DNA of 64,000 nucleotides. It comes from Escherichia coli (GTDB taxonomy: Bacteria > Pseudomonadota > Gammaproteobacteria > Enterobacterales > Enterobacteriaceae). A program made the translations under genes and the position numbers. Of this stretch, positions 14,187-49,452 are shown one piece after another; position 1 is the stretch's first letter, and each line of letters opens with the position of its first letter. Location: NCBI RefSeq assembly GCF_044324785.1, contig NZ_CP172127.1, one strand, 5' to 3'. Below the pieces are notes generated by a model. It saw only the letters and a program-made list of their open reading frames with translations, had not been told where the DNA came from and did not search any database.

Positions 14187-14870
14187 ATGAAACTGTTGAT
14201 TGTCGAAGATGAAAAGAAAACCGGAGAATACTTGACCAAAGGGTTAACCGAAGCCGGTTTTGTGGTCGATTTGGCCGACAATGGGCTGAATGGCTACCAT
14301 CTGGCGATGACCGGTGATTATGACCTGATAATCCTCGATATTATGCTGCCGGACGTGAACGGCTGGGATATCGTGCGCATGTTGCGCTCCGCCAATAAAG
14401 GGATGCCGATTCTGTTGCTTACCGCGCTTGGCACCATTGAACATCGCGTCAAGGGGCTGGAGTTGGGGGCCGATGACTATCTGGTGAAGCCGTTCGCTTT
14501 TGCTGAACTGCTGGCGCGGGTGCGCACTCTCCTGCGGCGCGGGGCGGCGGTGATTATCGAAAGTCAGTTTCAGGTTGCCGATCTGATGGTCGATCTCGTC
14601 AGCCGCAAAGTCACCCGCAGCGGCACGCGCATCACTCTGACCAGTAAAGAATTTACTCTGCTGGAGTTTTTCCTTCGCCATCAGGGCGAAGTGCTGCCCC
14701 GCTCGCTTATCGCCTCGCAGGTATGGGACATGAATTTCGACAGCGACACTAACGCCATTGATGTGGCGGTGAAGCGGCTACGCGGCAAAATCGACAACGA
14801 CTTTGAGCCGAAGCTGATTCAAACCGTGCGCGGCGTGGGTTACATGCTTGAGGTGCCGGATGGTCAGTAA
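14187..14870 (+). CDS. cusR: Copper-responsive two-component response regulator CusR (OmpR family)
   Basis: 227-aa [23 protein letters not shown]..., receiver plus winged-helix domains. Confidence 0.9.
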
Positions 14871-16308
14871 GCCATTTCAGCGCCCGTTTTCGCTGGCAAC
14901 CCGCCTGACCTTTTTTATCAGCCTGGCCACCATCGCGGCGTTTTTCGCCTTTGCATGGATCATGATCCACTCAGTAAAAGTGCATTTTGCCGAGCAGGAT
15001 ATTAATGATTTAAAAGAGATTAGCGCCACACTCAAGCGCGTTCTTAATCATCCCGAAGAGACACAAGCCCGACGCTTAATGACGCTGGAAGATATCGTCA
15101 GTGGTTATTCCAACGTGTTGATTTCCCTGGCAGATAGCCACGGTAAAACGGTATATCACTCCCCCGGTGCGCCCGATATCCGCGAGTTTGCACGTGATGC
15201 CATACCCGATAAAGACGCGCGGGGCGGCGAGGTGTATCTCCTTTCCGGCCCGACAATGATGATGCCGGGCCACGGTCACGGGCATATGGAACACAGCAAC
15301 TGGCGGATGATTAACTTGCCGATTGGCCCGTTGGTGGACGGCAAACCGATTTATACGCTCTACATCGCGCTTTCGATCGATTTTCATCTTCATTACATAA
15401 ATGATTTGATGAATAAACTTATTATGACCGCATCGATCATCAGCATCCTGATCGTCTTTATCGTGCTATTGGCGGTACATAAAGGTCACGCGCCGATCCG
15501 CAGCGTCAGCCGTCAAATCCAGAATATCACCTCGAAAGATCTCGACGTTCGCCTTGACCCGCAGACCGTGCCGATTGAGCTGGAACAGTTGGTACTGTCG
15601 TTCAACCATATGATCGAGCGTATTGAGGATGTCTTTACCCGCCAGTCCAATTTCTCAGCGGATATCGCCCACGAAATTCGTACACCAATTACGAATCTCA
15701 TAACGCAAACGGAAATCGCCCTCAGCCAGTCGCGCAGCCAGAAGGAGCTGGAAGATGTGCTCTACTCTAATCTCGAAGAGCTGACGCGAATGGCGAAAAT
15801 GGTCAGCGATATGTTGTTTCTCGCCCAGGCCGATAACAACCAGTTAATCCCCGAAAAGAAAATGCTCAACCTGGCGGATGAAGTCGGCAAAGTGTTCGAT
15901 TTTTTCGAGGCGTTAGCGGAAGATCGCGGCGTGGAGTTGCGGTTTGTTGGTGACGAGTGTCAGGTTGCGGGCGATCCGCTGATGTTGCGTCGGGCGTTAA
16001 GCAACCTGCTTTCGAACGCCCTGCGTTATACGCCACCCGGAGAGGCAATTGTTGTGCGCTGCCAGACGGTCGATCACCAGGTGCAAGTTACCGTCGAAAA
16101 CCCCGGTACGCCCATTGCGCCCGAGCACTTACCGCGATTGTTTGACCGTTTCTATCGCGTTGACCCCTCCCGTCAGCGAAAAGGCGAAGGTAGCGGCATT
16201 GGTCTGGCGATAGTGAAATCGATAGTTGTCGCGCATAAAGGCACGGTTGCGGTAACGTCAGATGCGCGGGGGACAAGGTTTATGATCAAACTACCGGAGA
16301 AAGGTTAA
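14860..16308 (+). CDS. cusS: Copper-sensing histidine kinase CusS
   Basis: ORF 14848..16308; ATG at 14860 ([19 protein letters not shown]...) overlaps the cusR stop; two TM segments, HAMP/HisKA/HATPase_c. Confidence 0.85.
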
Positions 16309-17051
16309 TTAGTTAGTTCAAACTCAAAGAGTGATGTATCGCCTTCTGTTATTATTTATCAATAAAACAGGGAAGACCTTATTGGTCGTCTGAAATCGAA
16401 GGTTATTCATTTTCGGATATTTACGAGATATTTAGATATGCAATTTAATCAAATTCGTGTTTCTACCAATTGTAGAGCACAATGCTATTACTAAATTTTC
16501 ATCACTATAAAAGAATCGGCTATAATATAAAGCGCAGTCAGGCATCATTAATCTCTATATTATTCACACAATCTATTTATCAAGTGAATTTGATAAATTC
16601 CTAATTTAAAATATTCACTATTAAGCCAGCGTCTAACGACGTTAAGATGGCAATGTGCAGATCATGTTATCAGGGTGGGGCGGTAGCGTATATTCCTTAT
16701 ACAAACCATCATTCATTTCAATAATATTTATTGAGTTATTTATTATTGTGAATAAAAAGACATTACAAATATTGGTTTAACTTTGCATATCAGGTGTTTT
16801 TTTGTTACTCGATGTAATATACGAGCCTGTCCTTAATAACATCGTGAACCCGTCAGTTGAGTTTGTGATTATTTTGTTGACTCAACAGCCCCCCGTTTCT
16901 CTGAAGTAAAATCCCGGACAAAATTCTCACATAACCATGACACTTTTCTGATATTCCCCGGTAACGCCTGAAGCCGGCCCGCTTATCTCATTACCCGACA
17001 TGTTGTACATGCAATATGTGCGGATTATTATTCATTTTCACGGAGGTTGCT

Positions 17052-18953
17052 ATGTCAACCGGATTACGTTTCACACTGGAAGTGGACGGCCTGCCACCGG
17101 ACGCTTTTGCGGTGGTCTCCTTTCATCTCACCCAGTCACTCTCTTCACTTTTTTCCCTAGACCTTTCTCTGGTCAGTCAGCAGGTTCTCTCCCTTGAATT
17201 TGCGCAGGTGCTGGACAAAATGGCCTACCTGACGGTATGGCAGGGCGATGACGTACAGCGCCGGGTGAAAGGCGTGGTGACCTGGTTTGAACTCGGGGAG
17301 AACGACAAAAACCAGATGCTGTACAGCATGAAGGTGCGCCCGCCGCTGTGGCGGGCAGGACTGCGTCAGAACTTCCGTATCTTCCAGAACGAGGACATCA
17401 GAAGCATCCTCGGCACCATACTGCAGGAAAACGACGTCACGGAGTGGAGCCCGCTGTTCAGCGAGCCGCATCCTTCCCGTGAGTTTTGTGTCCAGTACGG
17501 TGAAACCGATTACGACTTTCTCTGCCGGATGGCAGCGGAGGAAGGCATCTTCTTCTATGAGGAGCACGCGCAGAAAAGTACCGACCAGAGTCTGGTGCTG
17601 TGCGACACGGTCCGCTATCTGCCGGAGTCCTTTGAAATCCCCTGGAACCCGAACACCCGTACCGAGGTGAGCACCCTCTGCATCAGCCAGTTCCGCTACA
17701 GCGCACAAATCCGTCCTTCCTCCGTGGTGACCAAAGACTACACCTTTAAACGCCCCGGCTGGGCCGGGCGTTTTGACCAGGAAGGCCAGCATCAGGATTA
17801 CCAGCGCACACAGTATGAAGTGTATGACTGGCCGGGGCGTTTCAAGAGCGCCCACGGGCAGAACTTTGCCCGCTGGCAGATGGACGGCTGGCGAAACAAC
17901 GCAGAAACCGCGCGGGGAATGAGCCGCTCGCCGGAGATATGGCCGGGACGGCGAATTGTGCTGACGGAGCATCCGCAGGCGAACCTGAACCGGGAATGGC
18001 AGGTGGTGGCGAGCGAACTGCACGGCGAACAGCCGCAGGCGGTGCCGGGACGGCGGGGCGCGGGGACGGCGCTGGAGAACCAGTTTGTGGTAATCCCGGC
18101 AGACCGGACGTGGCGGCCACAGCCGAAGCCAAAGCCGTCAGTGGACGGTCCACAGAGCGCCGTCGTGACGGGGCCTGCGGGAGAGGAAATCTTCTGCGAC
18201 GAGCATGGCCGGGTGCGGGTGAAATTCAACTGGGACCGCTATAACCCGGCCAACCAGGACAGCTCGTGCTGGATACGGGTGGCGCAGGCGTGGGCGGGGC
18301 CGGGATTTGGCAACCTGGCGATACCGCGCGTGGGTCAGGAGGTCATTGTGGACTTCCTCAACGGCGACCCAGACCAGCCCATCATCATGGGCCGCACCTA
18401 TCACCAGGAAAACCGCACCCCCGGCAGCCTGCCGGGAACGAAGACGCAGATGACCATCCGCTCCAAAACATATATGGGCAGCGGGTTTAACGAGCTGAAG
18501 TTTGACGATGCAACAGGGAAAGAACAGGTCTACATCCACGCGCAGAAGAACATGGATACCGAGGTGCTCAACGACCGTACCACCACCGTAAAACACGATC
18601 ACCGCGAAACCGTAAAAAATGACCAGACGGTCACGATCCAGGAAGGTAACCGCCTTCTTACGGTGGCAAAAGGCCACAAAATCACAGGCGTACTAAAAGG
18701 GTCCTTATCTGAGGATGTCTTTCAGGACAGAGGCACGATTGCCGGTTCAGTGCATGTTGACGCTGTAAACAATGGTGGCGAAGGCGACGGTATACAGGCT
18801 TATACGGCGATTAAGCAAATTATGCTGGCCGTGGAGGAAAGCAAAATTGCGCTGACGCCGGATGGCATTCAGCTACAGGTCGGGGAATCGACGGTAATCA
18901 GGCTGTCGAAGGATGGCATCACCATCGTGGGCAGTTCTGTTTTCATCAACTGA
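17052..18953 (+). CDS. vgrG: Type VI secretion spike protein VgrG (Rhs-element-associated)
   Basis: ATG at 17052 after GGAGG; 633 aa MSTGLRFTLEVDGLPPDAFAVV... with gp27-like N-terminal and gp5-like beta-helix regions; directly upstream of DUF1795 and rhs genes. Confidence 0.8.
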   Translation: MSTGLRFTLEVDGLPPDAFAVVSFHLTQSLSSLFSLDLSLVSQQVLSLEFAQVLDKMAYLTVWQGDDVQRRVKGVVTWFELGENDKNQMLYSMKVRPPLWRAGLRQNFRIFQNEDIRSILGTILQENDVTEWSPLFSEPHPSREFCVQYGETDYDFLCRMAAEEGIFFYEEHAQKSTDQSLVLCDTVRYLPESFEIPWNPNTRTEVSTLCISQFRYSAQIRPSSVVTKDYTFKRPGWAGRFDQEGQHQDYQRTQYEVYDWPGRFKSAHGQNFARWQMDGWRNNAETARGMSRSPEIWPGRRIVLTEHPQANLNREWQVVASELHGEQPQAVPGRRGAGTALENQFVVIPADRTWRPQPKPKPSVDGPQSAVVTGPAGEEIFCDEHGRVRVKFNWDRYNPANQDSSCWIRVAQAWAGPGFGNLAIPRVGQEVIVDFLNGDPDQPIIMGRTYHQENRTPGSLPGTKTQMTIRSKTYMGSGFNELKFDDATGKEQVYIHAQKNMDTEVLNDRTTTVKHDHRETVKNDQTVTIQEGNRLLTVAKGHKITGVLKGSLSEDVFQDRGTIAGSVHVDAVNNGGEGDGIQAYTAIKQIMLAVEESKIALTPDGIQLQVGESTVIRLSKDGITIVGSSVFIN

Positions 18954-18980: not shown

Positions 18981-19442
18981 ATGCAGTTCACTTTTAATGA
19001 AGGTCATATTCAGCTGCCATCGCAATGGCAGGATCAGTCGATGCAGGTCCTGGTGTCCACAGATAACAGTGGCATCAACCTGGTCATTACCCGCGAACCC
19101 GTTCCACAGGGAACCCTGACACCAGAACTGTACCAGGAAACGCTGGCGCTGTACCAGGGCAAACTTGATGGGTACACCGAACATGCCTGCCGGGAAATCA
19201 CTCTGGCAGAGGCCCCGGCCTGGCTGCTGGATTATTCCTGGAACGGTCCGGAAGATGAAGGGAATCAGGGGCGGATTAGCCAGATAGCCGTATTCCAGCG
19301 GCGTGGAGATACGCTGCTGACCTTCACTTTCAGCACCTCCTTATCCCTGAAGAACAGTCAAAAGACGATGCTGCTGGAGGTGATAAAGAGCTTCACCCCG
19401 TTGCCACCGGAGAATGACATCCAAAAGGACCAGCCGCGCTGA
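18981..19442 (+). CDS. DUF1795-family (EagR-like) effector-associated chaperone
   Basis: 153-aa ORF between vgrG and a prePAAR-containing rhs gene, the canonical position of Eag chaperones; assignment is by size and context. Confidence 0.55.
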   Translation: MQFTFNEGHIQLPSQWQDQSMQVLVSTDNSGINLVITREPVPQGTLTPELYQETLALYQGKLDGYTEHACREITLAEAPAWLLDYSWNGPEDEGNQGRISQIAVFQRRGDTLLTFTFSTSLSLKNSQKTMLLEVIKSFTPLPPENDIQKDQPR

Positions 19443-19461: not shown

Positions 19462-22400
19462 ATGAGTGAAGGACCAGGCGGGCCACAGGGAGCGACCGCA
19501 GGCGGTACGCTGGCAATGCGAATGCTGTCACAGCAGGCGATGGTCGCCAGCCAGATGAAACGGGCAGCCAACGACAAAGCCATTGCACAGATGTTGGCAT
19601 CAAAAAAGTCTGGCCCCCCCGCCGCCAGGCTGGGCGATGAAATTCAGCACAAGAGTTTTTTGGGGGCGCTGGCAGGGGCCGTGCTGGGGGCGATAGTGAC
19701 CATCGCAGAAGGTTGCCTGATTATCGCCGCCTGTGCCACCGGCCCTTATGCGCTGGTTCTGGTGCCTGCGCTGATGTATGCCAGCTATAAGGCGAGTGAT
19801 TATGTGGAGGAGAAACAGAACCAGCTTGAATCCTGGATAAACAGCTTTTGTGACAAGGACGGGGCCATCAATACTGGTTCTAAAAATGTAAACATTAACG
19901 GAAAGCCCGCTGCCAGGGCCGCCGTCACACTTCCCCCTCCTCCCCTGACTGAAGCAATACCCTCTCCACCACAGGGGGAACCTTCATGGGGGGATATTGC
20001 CACTGACCTGCTTGAATCGGCAGCGGAAAAAGCAGTGCCACTGGCGAAGGCCTGGGGGAACGCTGTTATCACCCTGACGGACAGCAATGCCAGTTTTATG
20101 GATCGCTTATGTGCAGGCACATCGCTTCTGTTTCCCTACGGCCCGGTATTAATGGAGTTTGCCACCATGGTGGGCGGGCGTGGCGAAATCAAAAAAGACG
20201 TGGATTTCCCGGAAGCCGGTGAAGACACGGCGCTCTGCGACAAGGAGACTAAACCGCCGAGGATAGCCCAGGGCAGCAGCAACGTCTTCATCAACAATCA
20301 GCCTGCCGCGCGCAAGGGCGACAAACTGGAGTGCAGCGCGGCAATCGTGGAAGGTTCGCCGGACGTCTTTATTGGGGGTGAGCAGGTCACCTATCTGGAT
20401 ATCCAGCCGGAGTTCCCGCCGTGGCAGAGAATGATCCTGGGGGGAATAACGATAGCCAGCTATCTTCTGCCGCCAGCGGGACTGCTGGGAAAAATGAAGA
20501 ATCTGGCGAGACTCGGCAAACTGGGAAACCTGCTGGGGAAAAGCGGGAAGCTGCTGGGCGCAAAACTCGGCGCATTGCTGAGCAGAACAAAAAATGCCCT
20601 GAAAAATACGTATAACGTCCTGAAAAAGTTTATCAAAGATCCGGTTGACCCGGTAACCGGCGCGTACTGCGACGAACGTACCGACTTCACCCTGGGCCAG
20701 ACCCTCCCCCTCTCCTTCACCCGTTTCCACAGTTCTGTACTGCCACTGCATGGCCTGACGGGCGTGGGCTGGAGCGACTCCTGGAGCGAATACGCCTGGG
20801 TGCGTGAACAGGGAAACCGGGTGGATATCATCAGCCAGGGAGCCACGCTGTACTTTGCCTTCGACGGAGACAGTGATACGGCGGTTAACCCGTATCACGC
20901 CCAGTATATCCTGCGCCGCCGCGACGATTACCTGGAGCTGTTCGACCGTGATGCCCTGAGCAGCCGCTTCTTTTATGACGCCTTTCCGGGAATGCGCCTG
21001 CGCCACCAGGTGACCGGCGATACCAATGATGACCGCCTGGCACACAGCCCCGGTGACCGGATGTACATGCTGGGCGGAATGAGTGACACCGCCAGCAACC
21101 GCATCACGTTTGAGCGCGACAGTCAGTACCGGATCACGGGTGTCAGTCACACCGACGGGATCCGGCTTAAACTGACGTACCACGCCAGCGGCTACCTGAA
21201 AGCCATTCACCGCACGGATAACGGCATACAGACGCTGGCGACCTACGAACAGGACGAACGGGGACGGCTGACAGAAGCGGATGCGCGGCTGGACTACCAC
21301 CTGTTTTATGAGTACGACGATGCGGACCGGATCATCCGCTGGTCCGATAACGACCAGACGTGGAGCCGTTTCACCTACGATGCACAGGGCCGGTGCGTGA
21401 CCGTCACCGGGGCGGAAGGCTATTACAACGCCACGCTGGACTATGGTGACGGCTGCACTTCCGTGACGGACGGCAAGGGCATTCACCGTTATTACTATGA
21501 TCCTGACGGCAATATCCTGCGGGAAGACGCGCCGGACGGCAGTACCACCACGTATGAATGGGATGAATTCCATCACCTGCTGGCCCGCCACTCCCCTGCC
21601 GGACGGGTGGAGAAATTTGAATACAACGCCGTACACGGTCAGTTAAGCCGTTACACGGCGGCAGACGGCGCGGTGTGGCAGTACCGCTATGATGAGCGCG
21701 GCCTGCTCAGCAACATCACCGACCCTGCCGGGCAGACGTGGACACAGCAGTGTGATGAACGCGGCCTGCCGGTAAGTCTGGTGTCGCCACAGGGCGAAGA
21801 GACCCGGCTGGCGTACACGCCACAGGGGCTGCTGTCGGGGATATTCCGCCAGGATGAACGGCGTCTGGGCATAGAGTACGACCACCACAACCGGCCGGAA
21901 ACACTCACCGACGTGATGGGCCGTGAACACCACACCGAATACAGCGGTCACGACCTGCCGGTGAAGATGCGCGGCCCCGGCGGTCAGTCAGTGCGGTTAC
22001 AGTGGCAGCAGCACCATAAACTGAGTGGCCTTGAGCGGGCAGGAACCGGCGCGGAAGGATTCCGCTACGACCGCCACGGCAACCTGCTGGCGTACACGGA
22101 CGGTAACGGCGTTGTCTGGACAATGGAATACGGCCCGTTCGATTTGCCGGTGGCGCGAACGGACGGTGAAGGCCACCGCTGGCAGTACCGCTACGATAAA
22201 GACACGCTGCAACTGACAGAAGTCATCAATCCGCAGGGTGAGTCATACCGTTATATTCTCGACAACTGTGGCCGGGTGACGGAAGAGCGTGACTGGGGCG
22301 GCGTGGTCTGGCGTTACCGCTATGACGCCGATGGCCTGTGTACCGCCAGGGTTAACGGCCTGGAGGAAACTATCCTCTACAGCCGGGACGCCGCAGGCCG

Positions 22401-24671: not shown

Positions 24672-24729
24672 TGACCTCTACATATATCCTCAGTTCGTGG
24701 CTGGTATTACATGATCTGACAGGGAAAGA

Positions 24730-24883
24730 TCGTGGCGAAATCAAAAAAGACGTGGATTTCCCGGAAGCCGGTGAGGACACGGCGCTCTGCGACAAGGAGA
24801 ACAAACCACCGAGGATAGCCCAGGGCAGCAGCAACGTCTTCATCAACAATCAGCCTGCCGCACGCAAAGGGGACAAACTGCAG
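24730..24883 (+). pseudogene. Displaced 154-bp fragment of the rhs PAAR-encoding region
   Basis: Near-identical to main rhs 20177-20329 (GEIKKDVDFPEAGEDTALCDKE.KPPRIAQGSSNVFINNQPAARKGDKL); preceded by CAGGGAAAGATC at 24718-24729 and truncated by the IS left end at 24881. Confidence 0.8.
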
Positions 24884-26171
24884 GGAAAGATCACGTAACG
24901 CTGCTTTTTTGTACTAAATAATTCGCATTTTATGTTTAAAAATTGAGATATTCCTCATTACCTAAAGCTGTTTTTTATTGCTTATACATGATCAAATACT
25001 CCTTACATAATTAAGGAGAACAAAATGGAACTTAAAAAATTGATGGAACATATTTCTGTTATCCCCGATTACAGACAAGCATGGAAAGTAGAACATAAAT
25101 TGTCAGATATTCTACTGTTGACTATTTGCGCCGTCATTTGTGGTGCAGAAGGCTGGGAAGATATAGAGGATTTTGGTGAAACACATCTCGATTTTTTGAA
25201 GCAATATGGTGATTTTGAAAATGGTATTCCTGTCCACGATACCATTGCCAGAGTTGTATCCTGTATCAGTCCTGCAAAATTTCACGAGTGCTTTATTAAC
25301 TGGATGCGAGATTGCCATACTTCAGATGATAAAGACGTTATTGCAATCGATGGAAAAACACTCCGGCATTCTTATGACAAGAGTCGCCGCAGGGGAGCGA
25401 TTCATGTCATTAGTGCGTTCTCAACAATGCACAGTCTGGTCATCGGACAGATCAGGACGGATGAGAAATCTAATGAGATTACAGCTATCCCAGAACTTCT
25501 TAACATGCTGGATATTAAAGGAAAAATCATCACAACTGATGCGATGGGTTGCCAGAAAGATATTGCAGAGAAGATACAAAAACAGGGCGGTGATTATTTA
25601 TTCGCTGTAAAAGGAAATCAGGGGCGGCTTAATAAAGCCTTTGAGGAAAAATTCCCACTGAAAGAATTAAATAATCCAGAGCATGATAGTTACGCAATTA
25701 GTGAAAAGAGTCACGGCAGAGAAGAAATCCGACTTCATATTGTTTGCGATGTCCCTGATGAACTTATTGATTTCACGTTTGAATGGAAAGGGCTGAAGAA
25801 ATTATGCATAGCAGTCTCCTTTCGCTCAATAATAGCAGAGCAAAAGAAAGAGCCAGAAATGACGGTCAGATATTATATCAGTTCTGCTGATTTAAACACA
25901 GAAAAGTTCGCCACAGCAATCCGAAACCACTGGCACGTGGAGAATAAGCTGCACTGGCGTCTGGATGTGGTAATGAATGAAGACGACTGCAAAATAAGAA
26001 GAGGAAATGCAGCAGAATTATTTTCAGGGATACGGCACATCGCTATTAATATTTTGACGAATGATAAGGTATTCAAGGCAGGGTTAAGACGTAAGATACG
26101 AAAAGCAGCTATGGACAGAAACTACATGGCGTCAGTCCTTGCGGGGAGCGGGCTTTCGTAATCTTTCCCTG
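24881..26171 (+). mobile_element. ISAs1-family insertion sequence (Rhs H-repeat element), copy 1, ~1.29 kb
   Basis: Terminal inverted repeats CAGGGAAAGAT... (left) and ...ATCTTTCCCTG (right); contains a 378-aa transposase ORF; second copy at 31026-32315. Confidence 0.8.
25025..26161 (+). CDS. ISAs1-family transposase (H-repeat-associated protein, YhhI/YdcC/YbfD-like)
   Basis: 378-aa [40 protein letters not shown]...; recognised as the H-rpt protein family of Rhs elements. Confidence 0.85.
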
Positions 26172-26895: not shown

Positions 26896-27264
26896 TTGGG
26901 AATGATAAATAAAATAGTGAAAAAAATGTTGGTTTCATATAGCCCTAAGAAACCGGAGTCTAGGGGCGGGGATTTTGTTATTCCGTTGTTTTTTAATGAG
27001 AAAGTTTCTTTTTTTAGCATAAAAAGTGGCAAGCCAGTGCGATATGGTCTTATGGTATTTACAGGGAAAGTAATTACCATAGATGATATTCTTAGTAAAG
27101 TTCGTTTTCCTGATGTTATGAATGAGCAAAATATTCAACCGTTAATTGACTTTATTAATAACATTAGCGATTTTAAAATAGGGGATGTTATTGAAATTGA
27201 TGATAATGGTAAATTGAAAGTTGTGCCAAAATCAGCAGGACACCCTGTGAGTAAATTGCCATGA
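26896..27264 (+). CDS. Hypothetical AT-rich protein, candidate orphan immunity protein
   Basis: 122-aa ORF immediately upstream of the orphan rhs fragment; AT-rich; no recognisable domain. Confidence 0.35.
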   Translation: MGMINKIVKKMLVSYSPKKPESRGGDFVIPLFFNEKVSFFSIKSGKPVRYGLMVFTGKVITIDDILSKVRFPDVMNEQNIQPLIDFINNISDFKIGDVIEIDDNGKLKVVPKSAGHPVSKLP

Positions 27265-27289
27265 TACTTAAGGGGCCTGATTTTCTGTT

Positions 27290-30051
27290 TTTGCCAGTGG
27301 GACGAATACCATCACCTGCTGGCGAGGCTGTCTCCGGCAGGACGGCTGGAAAAGTTTGACTATCATCTGACACTCGGTCAGTTAAGCCGTTACACGGCGG
27401 CAGACGGCGCGGAGTGGCAGTACCGCTATGATGAGCGCGGCCTGCTCAGCAACATCACCGACCCTGCCGGGCAGACGTGGACACAGCAGTGCGATGAACG
27501 CGGCCTGCCGGTGAGTCTGGTGTCGCCACAGGGCGAAGAGACCCGGCTGGCGTACACCGCTCAGGGGCTGCTGTCGGGGATATTCCGCCAGGATGAACGG
27601 CGTCTGGGCATAGAGTACGACCACCACAACCGGCCGGAAACACTCACCGACGTGATGGGCCGTGAACACCACACCGAATACAGCGGTCACGACCTGCCGG
27701 TGAAGATGCGCGGCCCCGGCGGTCAGTCAGTGCGCTTACAGTGGCAGCAGCACCATAAACTGAGCGGCATTGAACGTGCTGGAACCGGCGCGGAAGGATT
27801 TCGCTATGACCGCCACGGCAACCTGCTGGCCTGGACGGACGGCAACGGTGTTGACTGGACAATGGAATACGGCCCGTTTGATTTGCCGGTGGCGCGAACG
27901 GACGGTGAAGGCCACCGCTGGCAGTACCGCTACGATAAAGACACGCTGCAACTGACAGAAGTCATCAATCCGCAGGGCGAGTCATACCGTTATATTCTCG
28001 ACAACTGTGGGCGGGTGACGGAAGAGCATGACTGGGGCGGCGTGGTCTGGCGTTACCGCTATGACGCCGATGGTCTGTGTACCGCCAGGGTTAACGGCCT
28101 GGAGGAAACCATCCTCTACAGCCGGGACGCCGCAGGCCGCCTGGCAGAAGTCATCACCCCGGAAGGGAAAACGCAGTATGCGTATGACAAATCCGGCAGG
28201 CTGACGGGTATCTTCAGCCCGGACGGCACATCACAGCGCACCGGCTACGACGAACGCGGGCGGGTGAATGTCACCACTCAGGGCCGACGGGCCATTGAAT
28301 ACCACCACCCCGATGAACACACCGTCATCCGCTGTATCCTGCCACCGGAAGATGAACGCGACAGACACCCCGGTGAATCCCTGCTGAAAACCACCTACCG
28401 CTACAACGCCGCCGGAGAACTGACGGAGGTTATCCTGCCGGGGGATGAGACGCTGACGTTCAGCCGTGATGAGGCAGGACGTGAAGTGCTCCGGCACAGT
28501 AACCGGGGTTTTGCCTGTGAACAGGGCTGGAATGCAGCCGGTCAGCTTACCAGCCAGCGCGCCGGATTTTTCCCGGCGGAAGCCACATGGGGCGGACTGC
28601 TCCCCTCACTGGTGCGGGAGTACCGTTACGACAGCGCGGGCAATGTGTCGGCTGTCACCAGCCGGGAAGACTACGGACGGGAAACACGGCGGGAGTACCG
28701 GCTGGACCGGAACGGCCAGGTCACAACGGTGACAGCCTCAGGCACCGGGCTGGGCTATGGCGAAGGCGACGAGACTTATGGCTATGACAGCTGCGGCTAC
28801 CTGAAGGCGCAGTCTGCGGGCAGGCACCGGATAAGTGAAGAGACTGACCAGTATGCCGGAGGCCACCGGCTGAAACAGGCCGGAAACACGCAGTATGACT
28901 ATGACGCCGCAGGCCGGATGGTCAGCCGCACCAGACACCGTGACGGCTACCGCCCGGAAACAGAGCGGTTCCGGTGGGACAGCCGGGACCAGCTGACCGG
29001 GTATTGCAGCGCACAGGGGGAGCAGTGGGAATACCGCCACGACGCCAGCGGCAGGCGGACGGAAAAACGCTGCGACCGGAAGAAAATCCGTTTTACGTAC
29101 CTGTGGGACGGCGACAATATTGCGGAAATCCGGGAATACCGCGATGATAAACTGTACAGCGTACGGCACCTGGTGTTTAACGGCTTTGAGCTGGTAAGCC
29201 AGCAGTGCAGCCGGGTACGGCAGGCGCATCCGTCCGTGGCCCCGCAGTGGGTGACGCGAACGAATTATGCGGTGAGCGACCTGACAGGCCGCCCGCTGAT
29301 GCTCTTTAACAGTGAAGGTAAAACCGTCTGGCGGCCGGGACAGACCAGCCTGTGGGGGCTGGCACTCAGCCTGCCCGCAGACACCGACTACCCGGACCCG
29401 CGCGGGGAGCTGGACCCGGAAGCCGACCCCGGCCTGCTGTATGCAGGACAGTGGCAGGATACGGAATCAGGGCTGTGCTATAACCGGTTCCGGTACTACG
29501 AGCCGGAAACCGGAATGTACCTGGTGAGTGATCCGCTGGGGTTGCAGGGGGGTGAGCAGACTTACCGGTATGTGCCGAATCCTTTAAGATATAAAGATTT
29601 CTATGGGCTTAGTAAGAGTTCAATAATAACGAGAGGAAAGAATGCTGGTCATGGCTATGCAGCCAGCGTTACACCTGGAGGCAAAGGTACGGTGTTGGCT
29701 GGTCACGGAGGATCAAAATTTGGCGATAAAATGATTATACCAGAAGGCGTATCGATAACGATGCCGAGAGATGGTATTAAAATATCAGATATGACTGGAA
29801 AATTACTGGAATCTGGTAATGTGGATGATATAATTAAAGCTGCAAGTAATAATCCTCGTGTAGCTAGCGATCTTGAAGGTTGGGTTACTTATTTGCCCGG
29901 CACTGAAATCCCTGATTATATTTTAAAACCACCCACCAATCTTAACATACTGGAAAATTCAGTAACGGTGAACACTTCAACTTATTTATCTCAAATGGTA
30001 AATGCTGGTCAAGGTAATGTAATCTGGGCTGCATGCACCGAATTTTTTTAA
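27290..30051 (+). pseudogene. rhs: Orphan rhs module: 3' part of the rhs core (no in-frame start; reading frame opens at 27255) fused to an alternative ~155-aa C-terminal toxin domain
   Basis: Homology to main rhs begins ~27290 (main 21565) and is near-identical from 27385; frame has a stop at 27252-27254 and no ATG until 27511; core ends ...DPLGLQGGEQTYRYVPNP then diverges (LRYKDFYGLSKSSIITRGKNAGHGYAAS...). Confidence 0.8.
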
Positions 30052-30065
30052 CGCGGGGTAATCGT

Positions 30066-30548
30066 ATGTATTTTAAAGATGATACTGACTATACATATTT
30101 CCTTCCTAATGAATATTTTTTACACGGGGTGAAAAATGTGGGCTGGATAGACAGAGAACACCCCTTCACAAAAGGGATTAGTGACGCTGAATTTATTGAA
30201 AAGTTAAAAGCAATAATTCTAACAGAGAATGAAGCAACTTGTTTTTCAGTTAATAAAATAAGAGGATTTCACAAATGTAATTTTTGCAATAGTGAAATGA
30301 TAACAATAACCGATGGAAGAAAAAAAGGATACCTTGGCATGAGTGAAATATGGATTCCATCCATCCACCATAATGAGTATTACGCGTTTCCTTCATTAAT
30401 TTTCCATTATATAACATCTCACATGTATAGACCACCAGAGGACTTTATTGTATCTGTTTTAAACTTGAATTTAAGCGAGAGTTTTTGCGCTCAAAACATA
30501 TATGACAATAAAATTAAGGAATTAAAAATAGACTTCTGGTTTCGTTAA
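30066..30548 (+). CDS. Putative immunity protein for the orphan Rhs C-terminal domain
   Basis: ATG at 30066, 15 bp after the orphan rhs stop; 160 aa, AT-rich, contains CNFCN and His-rich segment; no recognisable domain. Confidence 0.5.
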   Translation: MYFKDDTDYTYFLPNEYFLHGVKNVGWIDREHPFTKGISDAEFIEKLKAIILTENEATCFSVNKIRGFHKCNFCNSEMITITDGRKKGYLGMSEIWIPSIHHNEYYAFPSLIFHYITSHMYRPPEDFIVSVLNLNLSESFCAQNIYDNKIKELKIDFWFR

Positions 30549-30567
30549 AGCTGGTAATTTAACTTAT

Positions 30568-30660
30568 CGGGAATACCGCTATGATGGCAGTTTCAGACGG
30601 ACGGAGAAATGCTGTCAGCAAAAAGACTTCCGCTTCGCGTATCTGTGGGGCATGGGGATA
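30568..30660 (+). pseudogene. Short fragment of a divergent rhs core 3' region
   Basis: Translates to EYRYDGSFRRTEKCCQQKDFRFAYLWG, resembling but not identical to the resident core EYRHDASGRRTEKRCDRKKIRFTYLWDG. Confidence 0.5.
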
Positions 30661-30726
30661 ATTTATCTTCATCAATTGATATATTGATTAATGGCAAGGA
30701 GGCCATTGAAATTCCGTAAGGCCAAC

Positions 30727-30912
30727 TTGATATGACGCCTGGCACACAGCCCCGGTGACCGGATGTATATGCTGGGCGGGATGAGCGACACCGCCAGCAA
30801 CCGCATCACGTTTGAGCGCGACAGCCAGTACCGGATCACGGGTGTCAGTCACACCGACGGGATCCGGCTTAAACTGACGTACCACGCCAGCGGCTACCTG
30901 AAAGCCATTCAC
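30727..30912 (+). pseudogene. Rhs core fragment (copy of main rhs ~21040-21225) truncated by an IS left end
   Basis: Encodes RLAHSPGDRMYMLGGMSDTASNRITFERDSQYRITGVSHTDGIRLKLTYHASGYLKAIHR, near-identical to the main rhs; followed by CAGGGAAAGATCACG at 30915. Confidence 0.8.
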
Positions 30913-30914
30913 CG

Positions 30915-31025
30915 CAGGGAAAGATCACGTAACGCTGCTTTTTTGTACTAAGCAATTCGCATTTTATGTTCAGTATTTGAGATACTCCTTATAACACAAA
31001 CCTGTTTTTCATAGCTTATATATGT
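30915..31025 (+). repeat. Partial duplicate of the ISAs1 left end (~110 bp) upstream of the complete copy 2
   Basis: CAGGGAAAGATCACGTAACGCTGCTTTTTTGTACTAA... matches the IS left end, then a second left end begins at 31026. Confidence 0.7.
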
Positions 31026-32315
31026 AGGAAAAGATCACGTAACGCTCCTTTTTTGTACTAAATAATTCGCATTTTATGTTTAAAAATTGAGATATTCCTC
31101 ATTACCTAAAGCTGTTTTTTATTGCTTACACATGATCAAATACTCCTTACATAATTAAGGATAACAAAATGTAACTTAAAAAATTGATGGAACATATTTC
31201 TATTATCCCCGATTACAGACAAGCCTGGAAAGTGGAACATAAATTATCGGATATTCTACTGTTGACTATTTGTGCCGTTATTTCGGGTGCAGAAGGTTGG
31301 GAAGATATAGAGGATTTTGGGGAAACACATCTCGATTTTTTAAAACAATATGGTGATTTTGAAAATGGTATTCCTGTTCACGATACCATTGCCAGAGTTG
31401 TATCCTGTATCAGCCCTGCAAAATTTCACGAGTGCTTTATTAACTGGATGCGAGATTGCCATACTTCAGATGATAAAGACGTCATCGCAATTGATGGAAA
31501 AACACTCCGGCATTCTTATGGCAAGAGTCGCCGCAGGGGAGCGATTCATGTCATTAGTGCGTTCTCAACAATGCACAGTCTGGTCATCGGACAGATCAGG
31601 ACGGATGAGAAATCCAATGAAATTACAGCTATCCCTGAACTTCTTAACATGCTGGATATTAAAGGAAAAATCATCACAACTGATGCAATGGGTTGCCAGA
31701 AAGATATTGCAGAGAAGATACAAAAACAGGGCGGTGATTATTTATTCGCTGTAAAAGGAAATCAGGGGCGGCTTAATAAAGCCTTTGAGGAAAAATTTCC
31801 ACTGAAAGAATTAAATAATCCAGAGCATGACAGTTACGCCATTAGTGAAAAGAGTCACGACAGAGAAGAAATCCGTCTTCATATTGTTTGCGATGTCCCT
31901 GATGAACTTATTGATTTCACGTTTGAATGGAAAGGACTGAAGAAATTATGCGTGGCAGTCTCCTTTCGGTCAATAATAGCAGAACAAAAGAAAGAGCCAG
32001 AAATGACGGTCAGATATTATATCAGTTCTGCTGATTTAACCGCAGAGAAGTTCGCCACAGCAATCCGAAACCACTGGCACGTGGAGAATAAGCTGCACTG
32101 GCGTCTGGACGTGGTAATGAATGAAGACGACTGCAAAATAAGAAGAGGAAATGCAGCAGAATTATTTTCAGGGATACGGCACATCGCTATTAATATTTTG
32201 ACGAATGATAAGGTATTCAAGGCAGGGTTAAGACGTAAGATGCGAAAAGCAGCCATGGACAGAAACTATCTCGCGTCAGTCCTTGCTGGGAGCGGGCTTT
32301 CGTAATCTTTCCCTG
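31026..32315 (+). mobile_element. ISAs1-family insertion sequence (H-repeat element), copy 2, direct orientation relative to copy 1
   Basis: Same terminal sequences as copy 1 (left GGAAAAGATCACG, right ATCTTTCCCTG); transposase ORF inside. Confidence 0.8.
31187..32305 (+). CDS. ISAs1-family transposase (H-repeat protein), copy 2
   Basis: 372 aa from ATG 31187; the upstream ATG of copy 1 is followed here by TAA (ATGTAA), so this copy starts at the internal Met; a few substitutions relative to copy 1. Confidence 0.8.
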
Positions 32316-32502
32316 CGTTAACCGCCCCTCCTTGACACCACGCTTTTGTCTACATTCTACGCAAACGGCAACTTTTATAACCAGTGTAAAAATAACGTGC
32401 CGCAATAGTCATACCTATTAATGGTAAAAAGCTGTCACAATTCATAAAAAACCTTAATATACGCCACCCTAAACATAACCAGCGTTAATGTAAGGTTTTT
32501 GT

Positions 32503-44736: not shown

Positions 44737-45318
44737 TTAAACTTCTGGTATTACAGGCCACTCAATATCAGGTGCAGTTGATGTATCAACACGGTTCAGC
44801 AACACCCGATACTTCTTCCAGGCTTCCAGCAACGAGTTTTCTTCCTCCGTTGCGATCTCCAGATCTACAGCATCCTGAAGTGGCGCAATATGCTCACTGG
44901 CTACCTGCATCAGGCTGTTTTTTGTTTCTTCCACCTCCCGGATCCGGAACAGTTTTTCTGCTTCTGCATCTTTCACCCAGGCTGTGCCGTTCCACTTCTG
45001 AAACTCCCCTTCCGGCGATAACCAGGTAACATTTTCCGGTAACGGACCGAGTTCAGAAATAAATAACGCGTCCCCTGACGCTACGTCATAAACCGTTTTA
45101 CCCCGATGATCTTCAACGAGATGCCACGATGCCTCATCACTGTTGAAAACAGCCACGAAGCCTGCCGGAATATCTGGCGGTGCAATATCGGTACTGTTTG
45201 CTGGCAGACCTGTATGAGGCGGAATATATGCATCACCTTCACCAATAAATTCATTAGTTCCGGCCAGCAGATTATAAATTTTTATGGTCCGTGGTTGTTC
45301 ACTCATTCTGAATGCCAT
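44737..45318 (-). CDS. tfa: Tail fibre assembly protein Tfa (lambda-type)
   Basis: 193-aa [37 protein letters not shown]..., recognised as lambda Tfa; downstream of stf. Confidence 0.85.
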
Positions 45319-48300
45319 TATGCAAGCCTCACAATATAGTTAAATGCGATGTTTTTGACGGTGTTTTCCGCGTTACCAGCAGCGTTAACGGTGATGGTGT
45401 GTCCATGTGAACCAATTGCAACGGAGTGCGTGTGTGCACCAATACCGACAGTATGTGCATGTGCGCCTGCGCTTGCAGCAGTGCCGGACAGCGAGTGGGT
45501 ATGAGCACCATCTGATGATGTCTTCCCTGCATTACGAGTCTGGCCACTACCGCTTGTTGTGCTCATAATCCCCGCGCTTAGATTTGAAATCGCGGTATAA
45601 CCATTAGGGAAAATGCTCGTGTTCGTGCCACCAAATGCACCGGAACTCTTGTGTTGGTGCGCACCGGCACTATTTGCAGTCCCGCTAATACTATGGGTAT
45701 GCGCCCCGGTGTTATTCGTGGATTTGGTTCCGTAATCAAACGACGATGTGTTTTTCGTCCCCAAATCCGTACTGGATGCGCTGGCGCTGTGGGTGTGCGA
45801 TTTAATGCCGTCCTGTTCCTGAGACAATACGGCCCGACCACTGGCAGGTTTGCCCTTAATCGTCCAGCCACGCATATCAGGGATCACGCCTGACGGATAA
45901 GCGGCTGCAAGTTTCGGGTAAGCAGATTTGTCAAAAGTCTGCCCCTGCATCAGGGCATAACCAGACGGAACGGTATCTGATGGCCACGGGATTGGTGCGC
46001 CGACTGGGTAGCTTTCTGGTGGAAGATTTTTCGAGGTATAAACTTCTGCCCAGTCTTCCTCAAAACCATAACCGTCTCTTGAAGAACGGTAGAACAGACC
46101 ACCATTTCTGTAATGCGCCTTCATCTGCAAGGTCCGGCAACTTCCGACTCCGGTATAGAAGTTAACCAGAATATAGCTGTCGCCAGAGCGGGTGACATTG
46201 TAAGCGCCTGATTCGGCATTCCAGGGAACGCCACCATCCGCATCGGCATATGTATCCGTTGCCCTTCTGGCAAAAGCAGCCACATGCGCGGCGGTTAAAG
46301 TAATATCTTTGGAACCATCAAACTCAACACCAGAAACCAGTCTTGGCGTTTGTAGCTTTGTTGCTGTTAATGCATTACCGTTCAGACTTGCGGACAGTTT
46401 GGTTCCAATAACCAGTTCGCCGGTTGCGTTATCAATAGCAAACGGTCTTAATGTATTCCAGCCACCATAAACATCACCTTGATTGGTAAGCAGCAGGTAA
46501 GTTTTAGCGCCATCATTACGCCATAATGCACCATACTCCCCACCTATCATTCGAATCTGATTACCACCACGCGCTACAATTTCGTCTGTGGCAAAAAGTT
46601 TTTTGCACGACAAGTTATCGTTAACGATTAACGAATGAGACTCATAAAAACCACGCCCACTCTTAAAATCAAGGATAACGTCCGCCGCGATACATTCAGT
46701 CGCTGGATTTGTTGCCCCAAACTTATAGGTCGTATCATTAACAATGAGATCAGCACCAGGTGCGGATATTGACAGGCCATCTTCGATAAACGCAAAAACA
46801 GGGAAAGCAGCGCCATCAACATAGAACACAGAGCGCAAATCATCGCCCTTATTACTCATCATTATTGAGTGGATGGCTCGTTCATTGTTTTGATATTGCC
46901 AGAACATTCCATAAGCATAACGCCCCCTGTAAGTCCAGCCACCAGGCATAACAAATCCGTTAAACTCGCAGTTATTCATCGGATCGCCTGCGGTTCGCGT
47001 TGCCGTGGTGATAATGACCCTTGATGCCAGTTCGCTTACTGAGCCAGCAGAACGCATAACAACAACAGGGTAATATTTTCCAGATGTTGCACCTGCAGGA
47101 GCGTTAACCAGCACATAACGCATACCACGCTTATCAGCAAAGTCTGTTTTACTGACCGCGTTAATGTTGTTCAGGAAGCGTCCCTTATCGGGTATATCAG
47201 CGCCGTTCTGGTCTTTCTGCAGACGTTTCTCTGCATTGTCATAGGCTGATTTTACTGCCTTTGGCGTTGCCGCCAGCGTTTCAGACGTACTGTTGGTCGC
47301 ACTGCTGAGCTGTACTATCCCCTTTTTCGTCGTGCTCGCATCCTCAAGCGCCACGGCGGATGCAATATCCTCTGCCCGTTTTGCCGCTGTCTCGGCGCGC
47401 GTTGCCGCGGATTCCGCCGTACTTTTGCTCTGTGCTGCCGCCGTCGCACTGCCAGCTGCCTCTGTCGCCTTCGTGGATGCTGTCGTGGCGCTGCCCTTCG
47501 CTGCGGACGCTTGTCTGGTCGCCTCATCTTTTGAAGCAGACGCCGATGATGCCGATGACGCCGCCGAACTGGCGGACGATGCGGCAGCCGTTTTTGAGGA
47601 TTCTGCGCTGGTTTCCGACGCTTTCGCGTTCGTCTCGGATGTCTTCGCTGCGGATGCAGACCTCTCTGCTACCGCAGCCTGTTCAGTGGCTTCGCCAGCC
47701 TTCGTTGTGGCTGCTGAGGCGGCCGATGCTGCGCTTTCTGCCGATTTCCCGGCGGTGGTGGCACTGGCTGCGGCCTCCTCCGCTTTGGCTGACGCCTCTC
47801 GGGCTGATGATGCAGCGGTAGTTTCTGAACCTGCCGCAGCTGAGGCGCTCTGTTCCGCTGCCGTTTCAGAAGACCTGGCGTTTGTCTCGGACGTTTTTGC
47901 CGCCTTCGCAGAATTTGCTGCCGCCGTTGCCGAGGAAGCTGCACTACCGGCGCTTGATAATGCGTTCGTTTCTGATGATTTTGCCGCCTCTTTTGAAGCC
48001 GCCGCATCCCTGGCTGAGGTGGTAGCTTCTGACGCCTTTGTGGTCGCGGTGGATGCAGAAGTGGCTGCTAATTGTTGTGACGCTGCCGCATTCGTTTCTG
48101 ACGTTTTCGCCGCACCGGCACTGGTAGCCGCCGCGCTTTTTGAGGACTCTGCAGCGGCAGCACTTTTTGATGCCTCAGAGGCTTTTGCTGATGCCGTTCC
48201 TGCGCTGGAAAAAGCCTCCTGAGCCGACGTCGCGGCCTGTCCGGCTGACGTGCTGGCTGCGCGTGCTGAGTCTGCAGCATCAGTCGCATGGGTTGCCGCC

Positions 48301-48725
48301 TCACGGGCAGATGTGCTGGCATCGCTGGCTGACTTCTTCGCGGCTGCCGTGTTCTGTGCCACTGCGGACGCGTTACGCGCCACCTCTTCCACCATCAGTT
48401 CAAAACGGCGCAGTGCCTCCGGACGGGCATCCTCCTCCGTCATGGCACCGAGAAAATCATTCAGCGTACCGGGTTGAGAATCTTCATACACGGTGATGGT
48501 CCCGGCATGTGACGGCGGGAAGCCTTCCACCAACAGAATAACGCTGTACTGACCGTACTCAACGTCCATGCTGTAACGCCCGGCTTCATCCGGATTTTCT
48601 GAGGCCAGTGTGTTCACCACCACCGTGGTGCTGTTACGTTTTGCTTTCAGCTGGATTGTGCAGTTCTGTACCGGTTTTCCTGTGCCGTCTTTCAGTACAC
48701 CTGAAATCTTTACTGCCATATTCAC
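45318..48725 (-). CDS. stf: Side tail fibre protein Stf (lambda-type) with long Ala/Ser/Thr-rich repeat region
   Basis: 1135-aa ORF; N-terminus [30 protein letters not shown] matches lambda Stf; ~370 residues of tail-fibre repeats; conserved C-terminal region. Confidence 0.85.
47285..48395 (-). repeat. Low-complexity tail-fibre repeat array within stf
   Basis: Encoded protein is almost entirely A/S/T/E/K repeats; the GC-rich repeats generate long spurious antisense ORFs (e.g. 47293..48222 +). Confidence 0.7.
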
Positions 48726-48727
48726 CC

Positions 48728-48760
48728 CACAAAAAAGCCCGCCAGAACCGGCGGGCTGTC
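48728..48760 (-). terminator. Rho-independent terminator downstream of lom (minus strand)
   Basis: Minus strand reads GCCCGCCGGTTCTGGCGGGC followed by TTTTTTGTGGGG. Confidence 0.6.
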
Positions 48761-48783
48761 ATAACACTGTGTTACCTGGCTAA

Positions 48784-49383
48784 TCAGAACTTATAACCGA
48801 CGCCCACGATGAAACCGGCAGTGCGCCAGTCGCCACTGCCGGAGCCTTCATAAGCAATATCAATAGCCACGGATTCGGTCGGGTTAAACTGCACGCCAGC
48901 TCCCCACGCCAGAGAGGTGTTACTGTGGCGAGCGTCATCACTTCCGGTCAGCACGTCGTGCGTTTTTCCCTTGTTGTCAGTTACGCGGAGATAATCCCCG
49001 GAAAAAGTCGACACACGGCTGTAAGCCACGCCTGCCATCGCATACGCGCTGAACCATTCATTCACGCGTACAGACGGCCCCGCCATCACGCTGAACCAGC
49101 GGTTACGAACGGAATCTTCATGCCAGCGGGTATCGCTGTAATGGGTCAGCTGGCGATTCTTGTCTCCTGCATAGCTGAAAGACGTCACCATCCCCAGTGT
49201 GTCCGTAAACTCATAACGGTATTTCACGTTAATCCCGTTCAGATCATCGCTGCCGGGAACGTTCGTCGAGACATGAAGATACCCTGCGCTCAGCGTGGAC
49301 TGATGTTCAGACGCCCATGCAGGCGCACCGGATACGGCCAGACAAATGGCTGCGGACAAAATGGCGGCATAAAGTTTACGCAT
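48784..49383 (-). CDS. lom: Outer-membrane protein Lom (Ail/Lom family)
   Basis: 199-aa ORF with signal peptide and beta-barrel pattern, ends with terminal F; position between J and stf as in lambda. Confidence 0.85.
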   Translation of the reverse strand: MRKLYAAILSAAICLAVSGAPAWASEHQSTLSAGYLHVSTNVPGSDDLNGINVKYRYEFTDTLGMVTSFSYAGDKNRQLTHYSDTRWHEDSVRNRWFSVMAGPSVRVNEWFSAYAMAGVAYSRVSTFSGDYLRVTDNKGKTHDVLTGSDDARHSNTSLAWGAGVQFNPTESVAIDIAYEGSGSGDWRTAGFIVGVGYKF

Positions 49384-49407
49384 AATTACCTCTCGCTTTT
49401 CTGCAAT

Positions 49408-49435
49408 AAAAAAGGCACCATTTCTGGTGCCCTTA
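49408..49435 (-). terminator. Hairpin + U-tract downstream of J (minus strand)
   Basis: Minus strand reads GGCACCAGAAATGGTGCC followed by TTTTTTATT. Confidence 0.5.
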
Positions 49436-49452
49436 TATGTGTTATAACAATT

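Follow-up and report, generated by a model that had tools for sequence, protein, structure and literature searches.

The AT-rich interval between cusS and vgrG in the window (the whole 64-kb stretch of Escherichia coli DNA analyzed here) is best read, with a probability of roughly three in four, as the control region that lies upstream of a T6SS auxiliary module gained by horizontal transfer: it appears to encode neither a protein nor a recognisable structured RNA, contains two sigma-70-type promoters facing vgrG and is most likely coated by H-NS. For a T6SS effector island of foreign origin this is nothing out of the ordinary, an AT-rich promoter region of the sort that H-NS targets. The preliminary description of this DNA, which had presented it as a non-coding leader with possible promoter elements and a typical target of H-NS, was largely right and requires two corrections, namely that the region is composite and that the best-documented vgrG start lies 14 nt from the ATG. 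The features discussed below are collected in Table 1.

Table 1. Coordinates of the interval, its putative control elements and the neighboring genes in the window
Feature	Position	Strand	Details
cusS, sensor kinase	14848-16308	+	ORF list, RefSeq annotation
AT-rich gene-free interval	16309-17051	unstranded	cusS on the left, vgrG on the right
Segment specific to the cusS locus	16309-16544 (about 237 bp)		31% GC; at no other locus
Conserved block	16545-16691	+	alleles A and B 88-98% identical, flanks about 70%
Distal promoter (putative)	16584-16612	+	-35 GTGAAT 16584-16589, 17-nt spacer, -10 TAAAAT 16607-16612
TTGATAAATT	16590-16599	+	in the distal promoter spacer; 9/10 match to the H-NS motif TCGATAAATT
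Most conserved core ATGGCAATGTGCAGATCATGTTATCAGGGTGGGGCGGTAGCGTAT	16647-16691	+	about 45 nt; +28 to +72 of the predicted distal transcript
Candidate small ORF MAMCRSCYQGGAVAYIPYTNHHSFQ, 25 aa	16647-16724	+	judged unlikely to be coding
Module-specific upstream DNA	16692-17051	+	about 90% identical to yncH-locus DNA upstream of vgrG
PhoB-box-like sequence	16936-16953	-	reverse complement TATCAGAAAAGTGTCATG; consensus 14/18
Proximal sigma-70 promoter (putative)	17003-17031	+	-35 TTGTAC/TGTACA, -10 TATTAT 17026-17031
vgrG, T6SS spike protein	17052-18953	+	protein start MSTGLRF; GGAGG at 17042-17046
DcrB-related (DUF1795) adaptor gene	18981-19442	+	ORF list, RefSeq annotation
PAAR-Rhs toxin gene, 1620 aa	19462-24324	+	ORF list, RefSeq annotation
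Island right end	32301-32360		right inverted repeat of ISAs1/ISEc1 up to 32315, then 45 bp

Composition, coding content and boundaries of the interval

The approximately 740-bp interval was correctly delimited in the preliminary description, with cusS ending at 16308 and the vgrG ATG at 17052. Its GC content is 34.5% (31% in 16309-16850 and 43.8% in the last 200 bp) vs 52.1% in cusS, 58.3% in vgrG and 51.8% in the 64-kb window, which confirms the strong AT-richness relative to the GC-richer flanks. Equally AT-rich windows of 743 nt make up 1.4% of the 64 kb, the others being the C-terminal tips of Rhs with their immunity genes and a region near 41.5 kb. The interval is 2.2-fold enriched in TpA steps, and the multiple A/T tracts noted earlier are real but modest, with 12 tracts of at least 4 nt vs 7.7 expected.

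The depletion of ORFs was likewise confirmed. The longest stop-free stretch comprises 44 codons, a length reached or exceeded in 99% of composition-matched shuffles (mean, 67.5 codons), and ORFs running from a start to a stop codon attain 35-41 aa at most. A RefSeq record with 98.8% identity to the query region has no annotated gene between CusS and the T6SS Vgr family protein.

The gene order in this part of the window is cusCFBA (on the minus strand), cusR, cusS, the interval, vgrG, the DcrB-related/DUF1795 gene and the PAAR-Rhs gene; to the right of the latter, orphan rhs fragments and two ISAs1-family elements are followed by nfrB and nfrA. The genes vgrG, DUF1795 adaptor, PAAR-Rhs toxin and immunity lie outside the core T6SS cluster, which is the organization of an auxiliary (orphan) vgrG-rhs module. 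The K-12 chromosome lacks the island and has 149 bp between cusS and nfrB. Homology to K-12 stops at about 16297, and the cusS-nfrB intergenic homology resumes at about 32361; therefore, the island is about 16 kb long. Its left junction, at about 16295-16300, falls within the final cusS codons, with the insertion about 10 bp after cusS, and for this reason the last six or so codons of cusS differ from those of K-12. Jackson 2009 lists the position between nfrB and cusS among the conserved Rhs loci. Having no counterpart in K-12 and occupying the cusS locus in 2418 of 5426 complete E. coli genomes, the vgrG-rhs island has the horizontal origin that had been ascribed to it.

Comparison of the genomes revealed two alleles of the island upstream DNA, 74-77% identical to each other: allele A, present in the window, and allele B. 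In the segment specific to the cusS locus, allele A (at least 99% identity) was found in 90 genomes and allele B (about 74% identity) in 2328. Of the strains with allele A, E. coli N3 and AF40 are 98.6-100% identical to the window in this region. Identity between the two alleles is about 93% in vgrG and about 70% over most of the upstream DNA, in which there are conserved patches (85-98%) at 16542-16700 (88-98%), 16741-16780, 16861-16900 and 17021-17060. From about 16545-16574 to 17051, the interval shows about 90% identity to a second locus, yncH, in the DNA that precedes vgrG/rhsE there. The yncH-locus copy is intact in O157:H7; in K-12 a remnant of it is left in front of the rhsE pseudogene, and this remnant keeps the module-specific DNA only as far as the equivalent of 16985. 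Judged from these comparisons, the interval is a composite of a cusS-locus segment and a part common to the yncH locus. Mosaic leaders, in which halves from the two loci are joined (L001 and L121), indicate that the cusS- and yncH-locus copies recombine.

Two promoters facing vgrG

Two sites in the interval have -35 and -10 elements in the sense orientation at the 16-18 nt spacing of sigma-70 promoters. Promoter prediction, proposed earlier as a check, gave a mixed result. The consensus scan did find the proximal promoter, as TGTACA-16-TATTAT (9/12) at 17004-17031, with a -10 hexamer matching the consensus at five of six positions. The number of sites in the interval was six vs 3.1 +/- 1.8 in shuffles, so that promoter prediction alone is not significant. 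The -35 hexamer of the distal site matches the consensus at only three of six positions.

Start sites have been mapped by Cappable-seq at both the yncH and cusS loci of O157:H7 EDL933 (PMC10469882; reference NZ_CP008957.1). At the yncH locus, a TSS at 2052061(-) is given for vgrG (EDL933_RS10715) in eight of the nine position columns of its table row (PMC10469882). It is located 14 nt before the ATG (CDS start, 2052047) and 7 nt after TATTAT. EDL933 and the window do not differ anywhere between TTGTACA and the ATG, these included. The equivalent position in the window is 17038; a proximal start would be expected at about this nucleotide, leaving a 14-nt 5' UTR with a strong Shine-Dalgarno sequence, GGAGG (17042-17046). 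At the cusS locus of EDL933, no canonical vgrG start is listed, and an orphan sense TSS on the vgrG strand is reported at 675571(-) (PMC10469882). This start lies 405 nt upstream of the vgrG ATG and 8 nt after TAAAAT, and the -35, spacer and -10 of its promoter are all identical to 16584-16612 in the window. The equivalent position is 16620, and the distal start is expected at this A.

Both sense starts are thus mapped 5'-triphosphate starts in homologues with identical promoter sequences, which bears out the earlier suggestion that the region contains a promoter. Since the window matches both mapped homologues, its allele combines the proximal and distal promoters, and we infer that they may be active in this strain. 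Allele B has lost 10 bp across the -35 and spacer of the proximal promoter, which would fit both the missing proximal start at the EDL933 cusS locus and the inactive operon start in Sakai. The intact proximal promoter sequence was found in about 3000 genomes, mostly at the yncH locus.

These positions change the meaning of the term "leader". It can be kept at most for distal transcripts, which would have up to 432 nt of leader and may reach vgrG. It does not apply to the whole 740 nt as one transcribed unit: the first 311 nt or so lie upstream of the distal start, and the best-documented start gives a 5' UTR of 14 nt.

It may be argued that the interval is an AT-rich spacer without function that came along with the island and that the mapped starts are spurious initiation, as is typical of such DNA. 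Indeed, of the five starts reported in the EDL933 homologues four are classed as orphan or antisense; the number of predicted promoter sites does not significantly exceed that in shuffles, and alleles A and B diverge more outside the block (about 30%) than in vgrG. Three of the four, at 675202, 675305 and 675709, are located on the opposite strand of the cusS-locus leader (PMC10469882); these antisense or orphan starts fit a promiscuous AT-rich DNA. However, the proximal start recurs in eight of nine columns, 7 nt after a 5/6 -10 box and just upstream of a strong ribosome-binding site; islands of 85-98% conservation are found inside a 70%-identical leader, and the block is retained across cargo types. 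We therefore consider an inert spacer unlikely and prefer the reading of the interval as a control region.

Searches for regulator motifs added little to the two promoters. In consensus scans for Fur, CRP, IHF, FNR, LexA, RcsAB, ArgR, Lrp and DnaA, none of the matches was better than in shuffles, including the best Fur match in the region (12/19). The PhoB-box-like sequence is marginal, as 7% of shuffles attain its score of 14/18; on the K-12 homologue, PhoB ChIP-seq gave a weak peak (Fitzgerald 2023). A sigma-54 promoter was considered and rejected: the core GG-N10-GC is a minimal match only, and the best consensus match (10/12) overlaps the vgrG ribosome-binding site.

A conserved block in front of different T6SS cargoes

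The block is the only unusual part of this otherwise ordinary control region and a mildly novel item. A 201-bp query spanning it (16560-16760) had matches in 5267 of 5426 complete E. coli genomes, in one to three places each. It is located upstream of at least four different types of T6SS cargo. At the ansP/yncG/yncH locus these are (i) vgrG-Rhs; (ii) PAAR-vgrG-DUF2169; (iii) two hypothetical genes followed by vgrG-DcrB-DUF6531; and (iv) an ISAs1 element followed by PAAR-Rhs, and the block precedes all four in the same orientation. Where vgrG or PAAR cargo follows, the core begins about 310-400 bp before the first gene. The block is also kept as a remnant abutted by ISEc1. Similarity across cargo types is graded: it is about 74-78% over the promoter part, reaches its peak in the core of about 45 nt and ends abruptly at GCGGTAGCGTAT (16680-16691). 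The core also contains the sole GATC of 16309-17051.

A scan of 100,044 species representatives revealed the core in Escherichia sp. E1V33 and one Citrobacter MAG only; six other matches, five of them alphaproteobacterial, look like chance. No copy of the block was found in the core T6SS cluster of EDL933, the similarity there being confined to the ribosome-binding site and start region of vgrG, and a shared T6SS regulatory motif was accordingly rejected. The conserved GTGAATTT motif was also rejected as a K-12 start site: the respective entries of Forrest 2022 are Bacillus subtilis coordinates.

We considered what may be conserved in the block. A structured cis-regulatory RNA (riboswitch, thermometer or attenuator) or a small RNA could be expected here, as the EDL933 sense start maps inside the block and the first 72 nt or so of the distal transcript would be the best-conserved part of the region. 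This explanation is highly improbable. In the Rfam covariance-model scan, which had been proposed as a check, no family reached its gathering score (the best matches had E = 0.41 and 3.7, with 17.8 and 16.9 bits vs gathering scores of 86.3 and 34). Folding energies lie near those of shuffled sequences (z = -0.1 to -2.3), and the fold of the alignment has an energy of -7.3 kcal/mol with a slightly unfavourable covariation term of +0.6. In addition, no intrinsic terminator was found in the interval, and no 3' end is listed in the region in the K-12 Term-seq tables (Adams 2021).

Conservation of the core could also be explained by a small protein or leader peptide of 25 aa. The frame is open with an in-frame ATG in 21 of 21 peptide forms (from the loci and the window), both allele-B substitutions within the core are synonymous in this frame, and the distal start would leave the ORF a 27-nt 5' UTR. 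Nevertheless, we regard translation as very unlikely. The peptides vary from 15 to 45 aa and have unrelated C-termini; between-type substitutions (about 3 synonymous vs about 8 nonsynonymous in a hand count of 21 variants) are about neutral, and the population singletons noticed in the C-terminal part are nonsynonymous. The ORF has no Shine-Dalgarno sequence, allele B opens an overlapping frame too, and the candidate is neither present in the K-12 small-ORF ribosome-profiling table (Stringer 2021) nor annotated in any RefSeq record inspected. The MAMCRSCYQGGAVAY... ORF was rejected on these grounds: its frame is kept, yet there is no sign of selection or translation. Thus, the earlier statement also holds with respect to a conserved small ORF: with neither purifying selection, nor a Shine-Dalgarno sequence, nor a profiling entry, the candidate probably does not account for the region.

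What remains is that the block represents the distal promoter together with its transcript start, kept at the left edge of exchangeable cargo. Selection on it may concern transcription, the nucleation of H-NS or recombination. It is possible, although we do not favor it, that the block is mainly a recombination or insertion junction, a fixed left anchor for ISAs1 (H-repeat) insertion and cargo exchange. Cargo would then be exchanged by IS-mediated or homologous events and promoter activity would be secondary; such a role is compatible with the main explanation. Several observations point to it. Homology between cargo types stops at one nucleotide run, GCGGTAGCGT(AT). Ends of ISAs1-family elements (CAGGGAAAGATYACG and related) abut the block in three independent configurations: at the CAGGG of the core in L007, where the IS end takes the place of the core from this point on, 5 nt after the core in L006 and L014, and directly after it in L058. 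The mosaic leaders L001 and L121 described above mix halves from the two loci, and the block outlives its cargo in K-12 and in L007-type remnants, which were found in about 780 genomes. On the other hand, no target-site duplication or recombinase site is recognisable, retention at an island edge can be passive, and the invariance of the core in the metagenome scan is partly imposed, as the scan pattern fixed part of it. The core is not a degenerate ISAs1/H-repeat inverted repeat (CAGGGAAAGATYACGWAA...) either, since it has only CAGGG in common with the ISEc1, ISEc26 and L058 ends.

A somewhat more speculative suggestion joins both roles. The block may be a portable, selectively maintained entry cassette of Escherichia T6SS auxiliary islands that provides for transcription of any cargo to its right, with the GCGGTAGCGTAT edge serving as a preferred docking point for ISAs1/H-repeat elements and allowing vgrG, PAAR and Rhs modules to be swapped at the cusS and ansP/yncH loci. 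If the block were such a shared promoter/leader and IS docking site, it would provide a handle on the exchange of T6SS effector modules at fixed hot spots and on the transcription and silencing of newly acquired cargo. The advance would be incremental, with no new kind of system, and we regard the block as a modest lead.

Probable silencing by H-NS

The interval has the properties of an H-NS target: it is AT-rich (34.5% vs 51.8% GC in the window), TpA-rich and part of variably present acquired DNA. By analogy with its homologues, the interval in this allele is probably silenced by H-NS, as had been supposed earlier, and H-NS silencing is the best-supported mechanism.

The closest evidence comes from the yncH-rhsE spacer of K-12. 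In genomic SELEX, this spacer was reported with an RpoD-holoenzyme "constitutive promoter" and an "HNS" flag in vitro (Shimada 2014). Position 1527862 (NC_000913.3), a PhoB peak shortly before rhsE, was flagged as lying in an H-NS-bound region, the flag being derived from the Kahramanoglou ChIP-seq data with explicit coordinate conversion (Fitzgerald 2023). H-NS-bound intervals at 1527343-1527787 were also reported (Forrest 2022); they would lie about 2 kb downstream if the coordinates are those of U00096.2, and GC content did not settle the coordinate version. It should be mentioned that the K-12 spacer is a paralogous copy at another locus, about 90% identical over 410 bp, and has no proximal promoter.

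Data from pathogenic strains point in the same direction. Deletion of hns in EDL933 derepresses the tested genes of the T6SS core cluster (Wan 2017). In EHEC Sakai the operon start of the orthologous S-loop 44 was inactive, and its authors, citing earlier work, state that H-NS represses T6SS expression. Silencing is incomplete at the EDL933 yncH locus, because the vgrG start there was detected in most conditions.

We infer from these homologues how the region might operate. H-NS filaments would cover both promoters, with nucleation possibly at TTGATAAATT in the distal promoter spacer, and the vgrG-rhs operon would stay off under laboratory conditions, while antisense and orphan starts would leak from the AT-rich DNA. 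The high-affinity motif of H-NS has the consensus TCGATAAATT. The match of TTGATAAATT to this motif is within chance for DNA of such AT-rich composition, 22% of shuffles reaching 9/10.

For annotators, the analysis shows where the vgrG-rhs operon probably starts and why it is likely to be silent in culture; it may also be useful for switching on the Rhs toxin module.

Comparison with known systems

The sci1 T6SS promoter of EAEC reportedly carries overlapping Fur boxes and Dam GATC sites. The core of the window resembles it in having a GATC next to GATCATGTTATC, which is loosely similar to a Fur half-site; it differs in having this single GATC and a best Fur match of 12/19, and we do not assign it to this type.

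S-loop 44 (vgrG1-rhsF-rhsFI-rhsG) of EHEC Sakai and EDL933 is the orthologous cusS-nfrB insertion with the same gene order, in which the operon start was reported to be inactive and the internal rhs promoters active. It differs in carrying allele B upstream, about 77% identical to the window, and in the EDL933 copy the proximal promoter has the 10-bp deletion and the spacer is shorter (593 bp).

The K-12 yncH-rhsE spacer, the source of the H-NS, RpoD genomic SELEX and PhoB ChIP data, is about 90% identical to 16574-16985 of the window, a stretch that takes in both the distal promoter region and the conserved block. It differs in being located at another locus, in the deletion of vgrG and the proximal promoter, and in having TGAAAT instead of TAAAAT at the equivalent of the distal -10. 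The K-12 RpoD-SELEX promoter, TTGACT-17-TATTAC, is degraded in the window (TTAACT, a longer spacer and TGTTAC, 16777-16808) and deleted in allele B; conserved in neither, it was rejected as a promoter of the window.

The interval also resembles the H-NS-silenced T6SS regions. The core cluster of EDL933 is likewise AT-rich upstream of foreign T6SS genes (Wan 2017), and the T6SS of Salmonella SPI-6 is, as far as it is described there, another H-NS-silenced AT-rich region of this kind (Brunet 2015, cited in Wan 2017). In contrast to these core clusters, the module in the window is an auxiliary (orphan) vgrG-rhs module, and its dependence on H-NS is putative. With H-NS-silenced T6SS loci it shares low or no laboratory expression, spurious bidirectional starts and a K-12 homologue bound by H-NS.

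Edges of the cusS-vgrG interval

The junction of the island with the conserved chromosome was found within the end of cusS (16286–16308), and the C-terminus of CusS in the window differs from that of K-12 (...TRFVITLPA, the K-12 form being read from its DNA). In the orthologous spacer of E. coli EDL933, three Cappable-seq starts (675202, 675305 and 675709) are oriented against vgrG; one of them, located only about 36 nt before the vgrG start codon (ATG), is directed back to cusS. Because of these opposite-strand starts, antisense transcription over cusS, initiated at the island edge, is possible.

Upstream of vgrG we also detected a PhoB-box-like sequence, which differs by one base in its K-12 homologue. 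A weak PhoB ChIP-seq peak (score 1, position 1527862) falls on this homologue; PhoB sites of such kind are, according to the authors of that study, mostly transcriptionally inert (Fitzgerald 2023).

In the locus-specific part of the interval, found only at the cusS locus, the motif CAGGGAAGACC (16368–16378) is similar to the beginning of the ISEc1 inverted repeat (first 12 nt, CAGGGAAAGATC), from which it departs by one deletion and one mismatch. The small hairpin from which both sub-threshold Rfam hits arise overlaps this motif, whose likeness to the ISEc1 repeat is probably due to chance.

ISAs1 elements and rhs duplications

Beside the main rhs gene, an ISAs1-end fragment, CAGGGAAAGATCG, is joined to a 153-bp duplicate of the rhs 5' part (24731–24883, 95% identity with 20179–20331), and a complete ISAs1 element follows directly, from 24881. 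This arrangement looks like the scar of an IS-mediated rearrangement within the island.

Further downstream we revealed an orphan rhs fragment (27511–30051) with its own AT-rich tip, a partial and a complete ISAs1 left end in tandem (30915 and 31025), and a second ISAs1 copy, which ends at 32315. Direct repeats of considerable length link this region to the main rhs gene (e.g., 21633–21932 and 27372–27671, 98% identity) and would make displacement of the C-terminal tip possible.

In L058, another sequence carrying the conserved core of the interval, the transposase gene of a distinct ISAs1-family element is broken into two ORFs. In seven metagenome contigs an element of this type stands immediately after the conserved core, and next to it comes a PAAR-Rhs gene that has no accompanying vgrG.

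Location of the features described
Feature	Sequence	Position	Motif
PhoB-box-like sequence	window	16936–16953	reverse complement TATCAGAAAAGTGTCATG
ISAs1-end fragment and rhs duplicate	window	24720–24895	
Region downstream of main rhs gene	window	26896–32315	
Spacer orthologous to the cusS-vgrG interval	EDL933 (L141)	675167–675759	
ISAs1-family element, distinct from the others	L058	6199–7516	ends CAGGGAAAAAGCATGAAAGCCC and CAGGGCGAAATCATGAAGGCCC

Prophage region

A lambdoid prophage region occupies 44737–63993. It contains two very similar long ORFs on the minus strand (45318–48725 and 49453–52866; 1135 and 1137 aa) and an ORF of 853 aa (55269–57830), the sizes of which resemble those of lambda J, present twice, and H, respectively.
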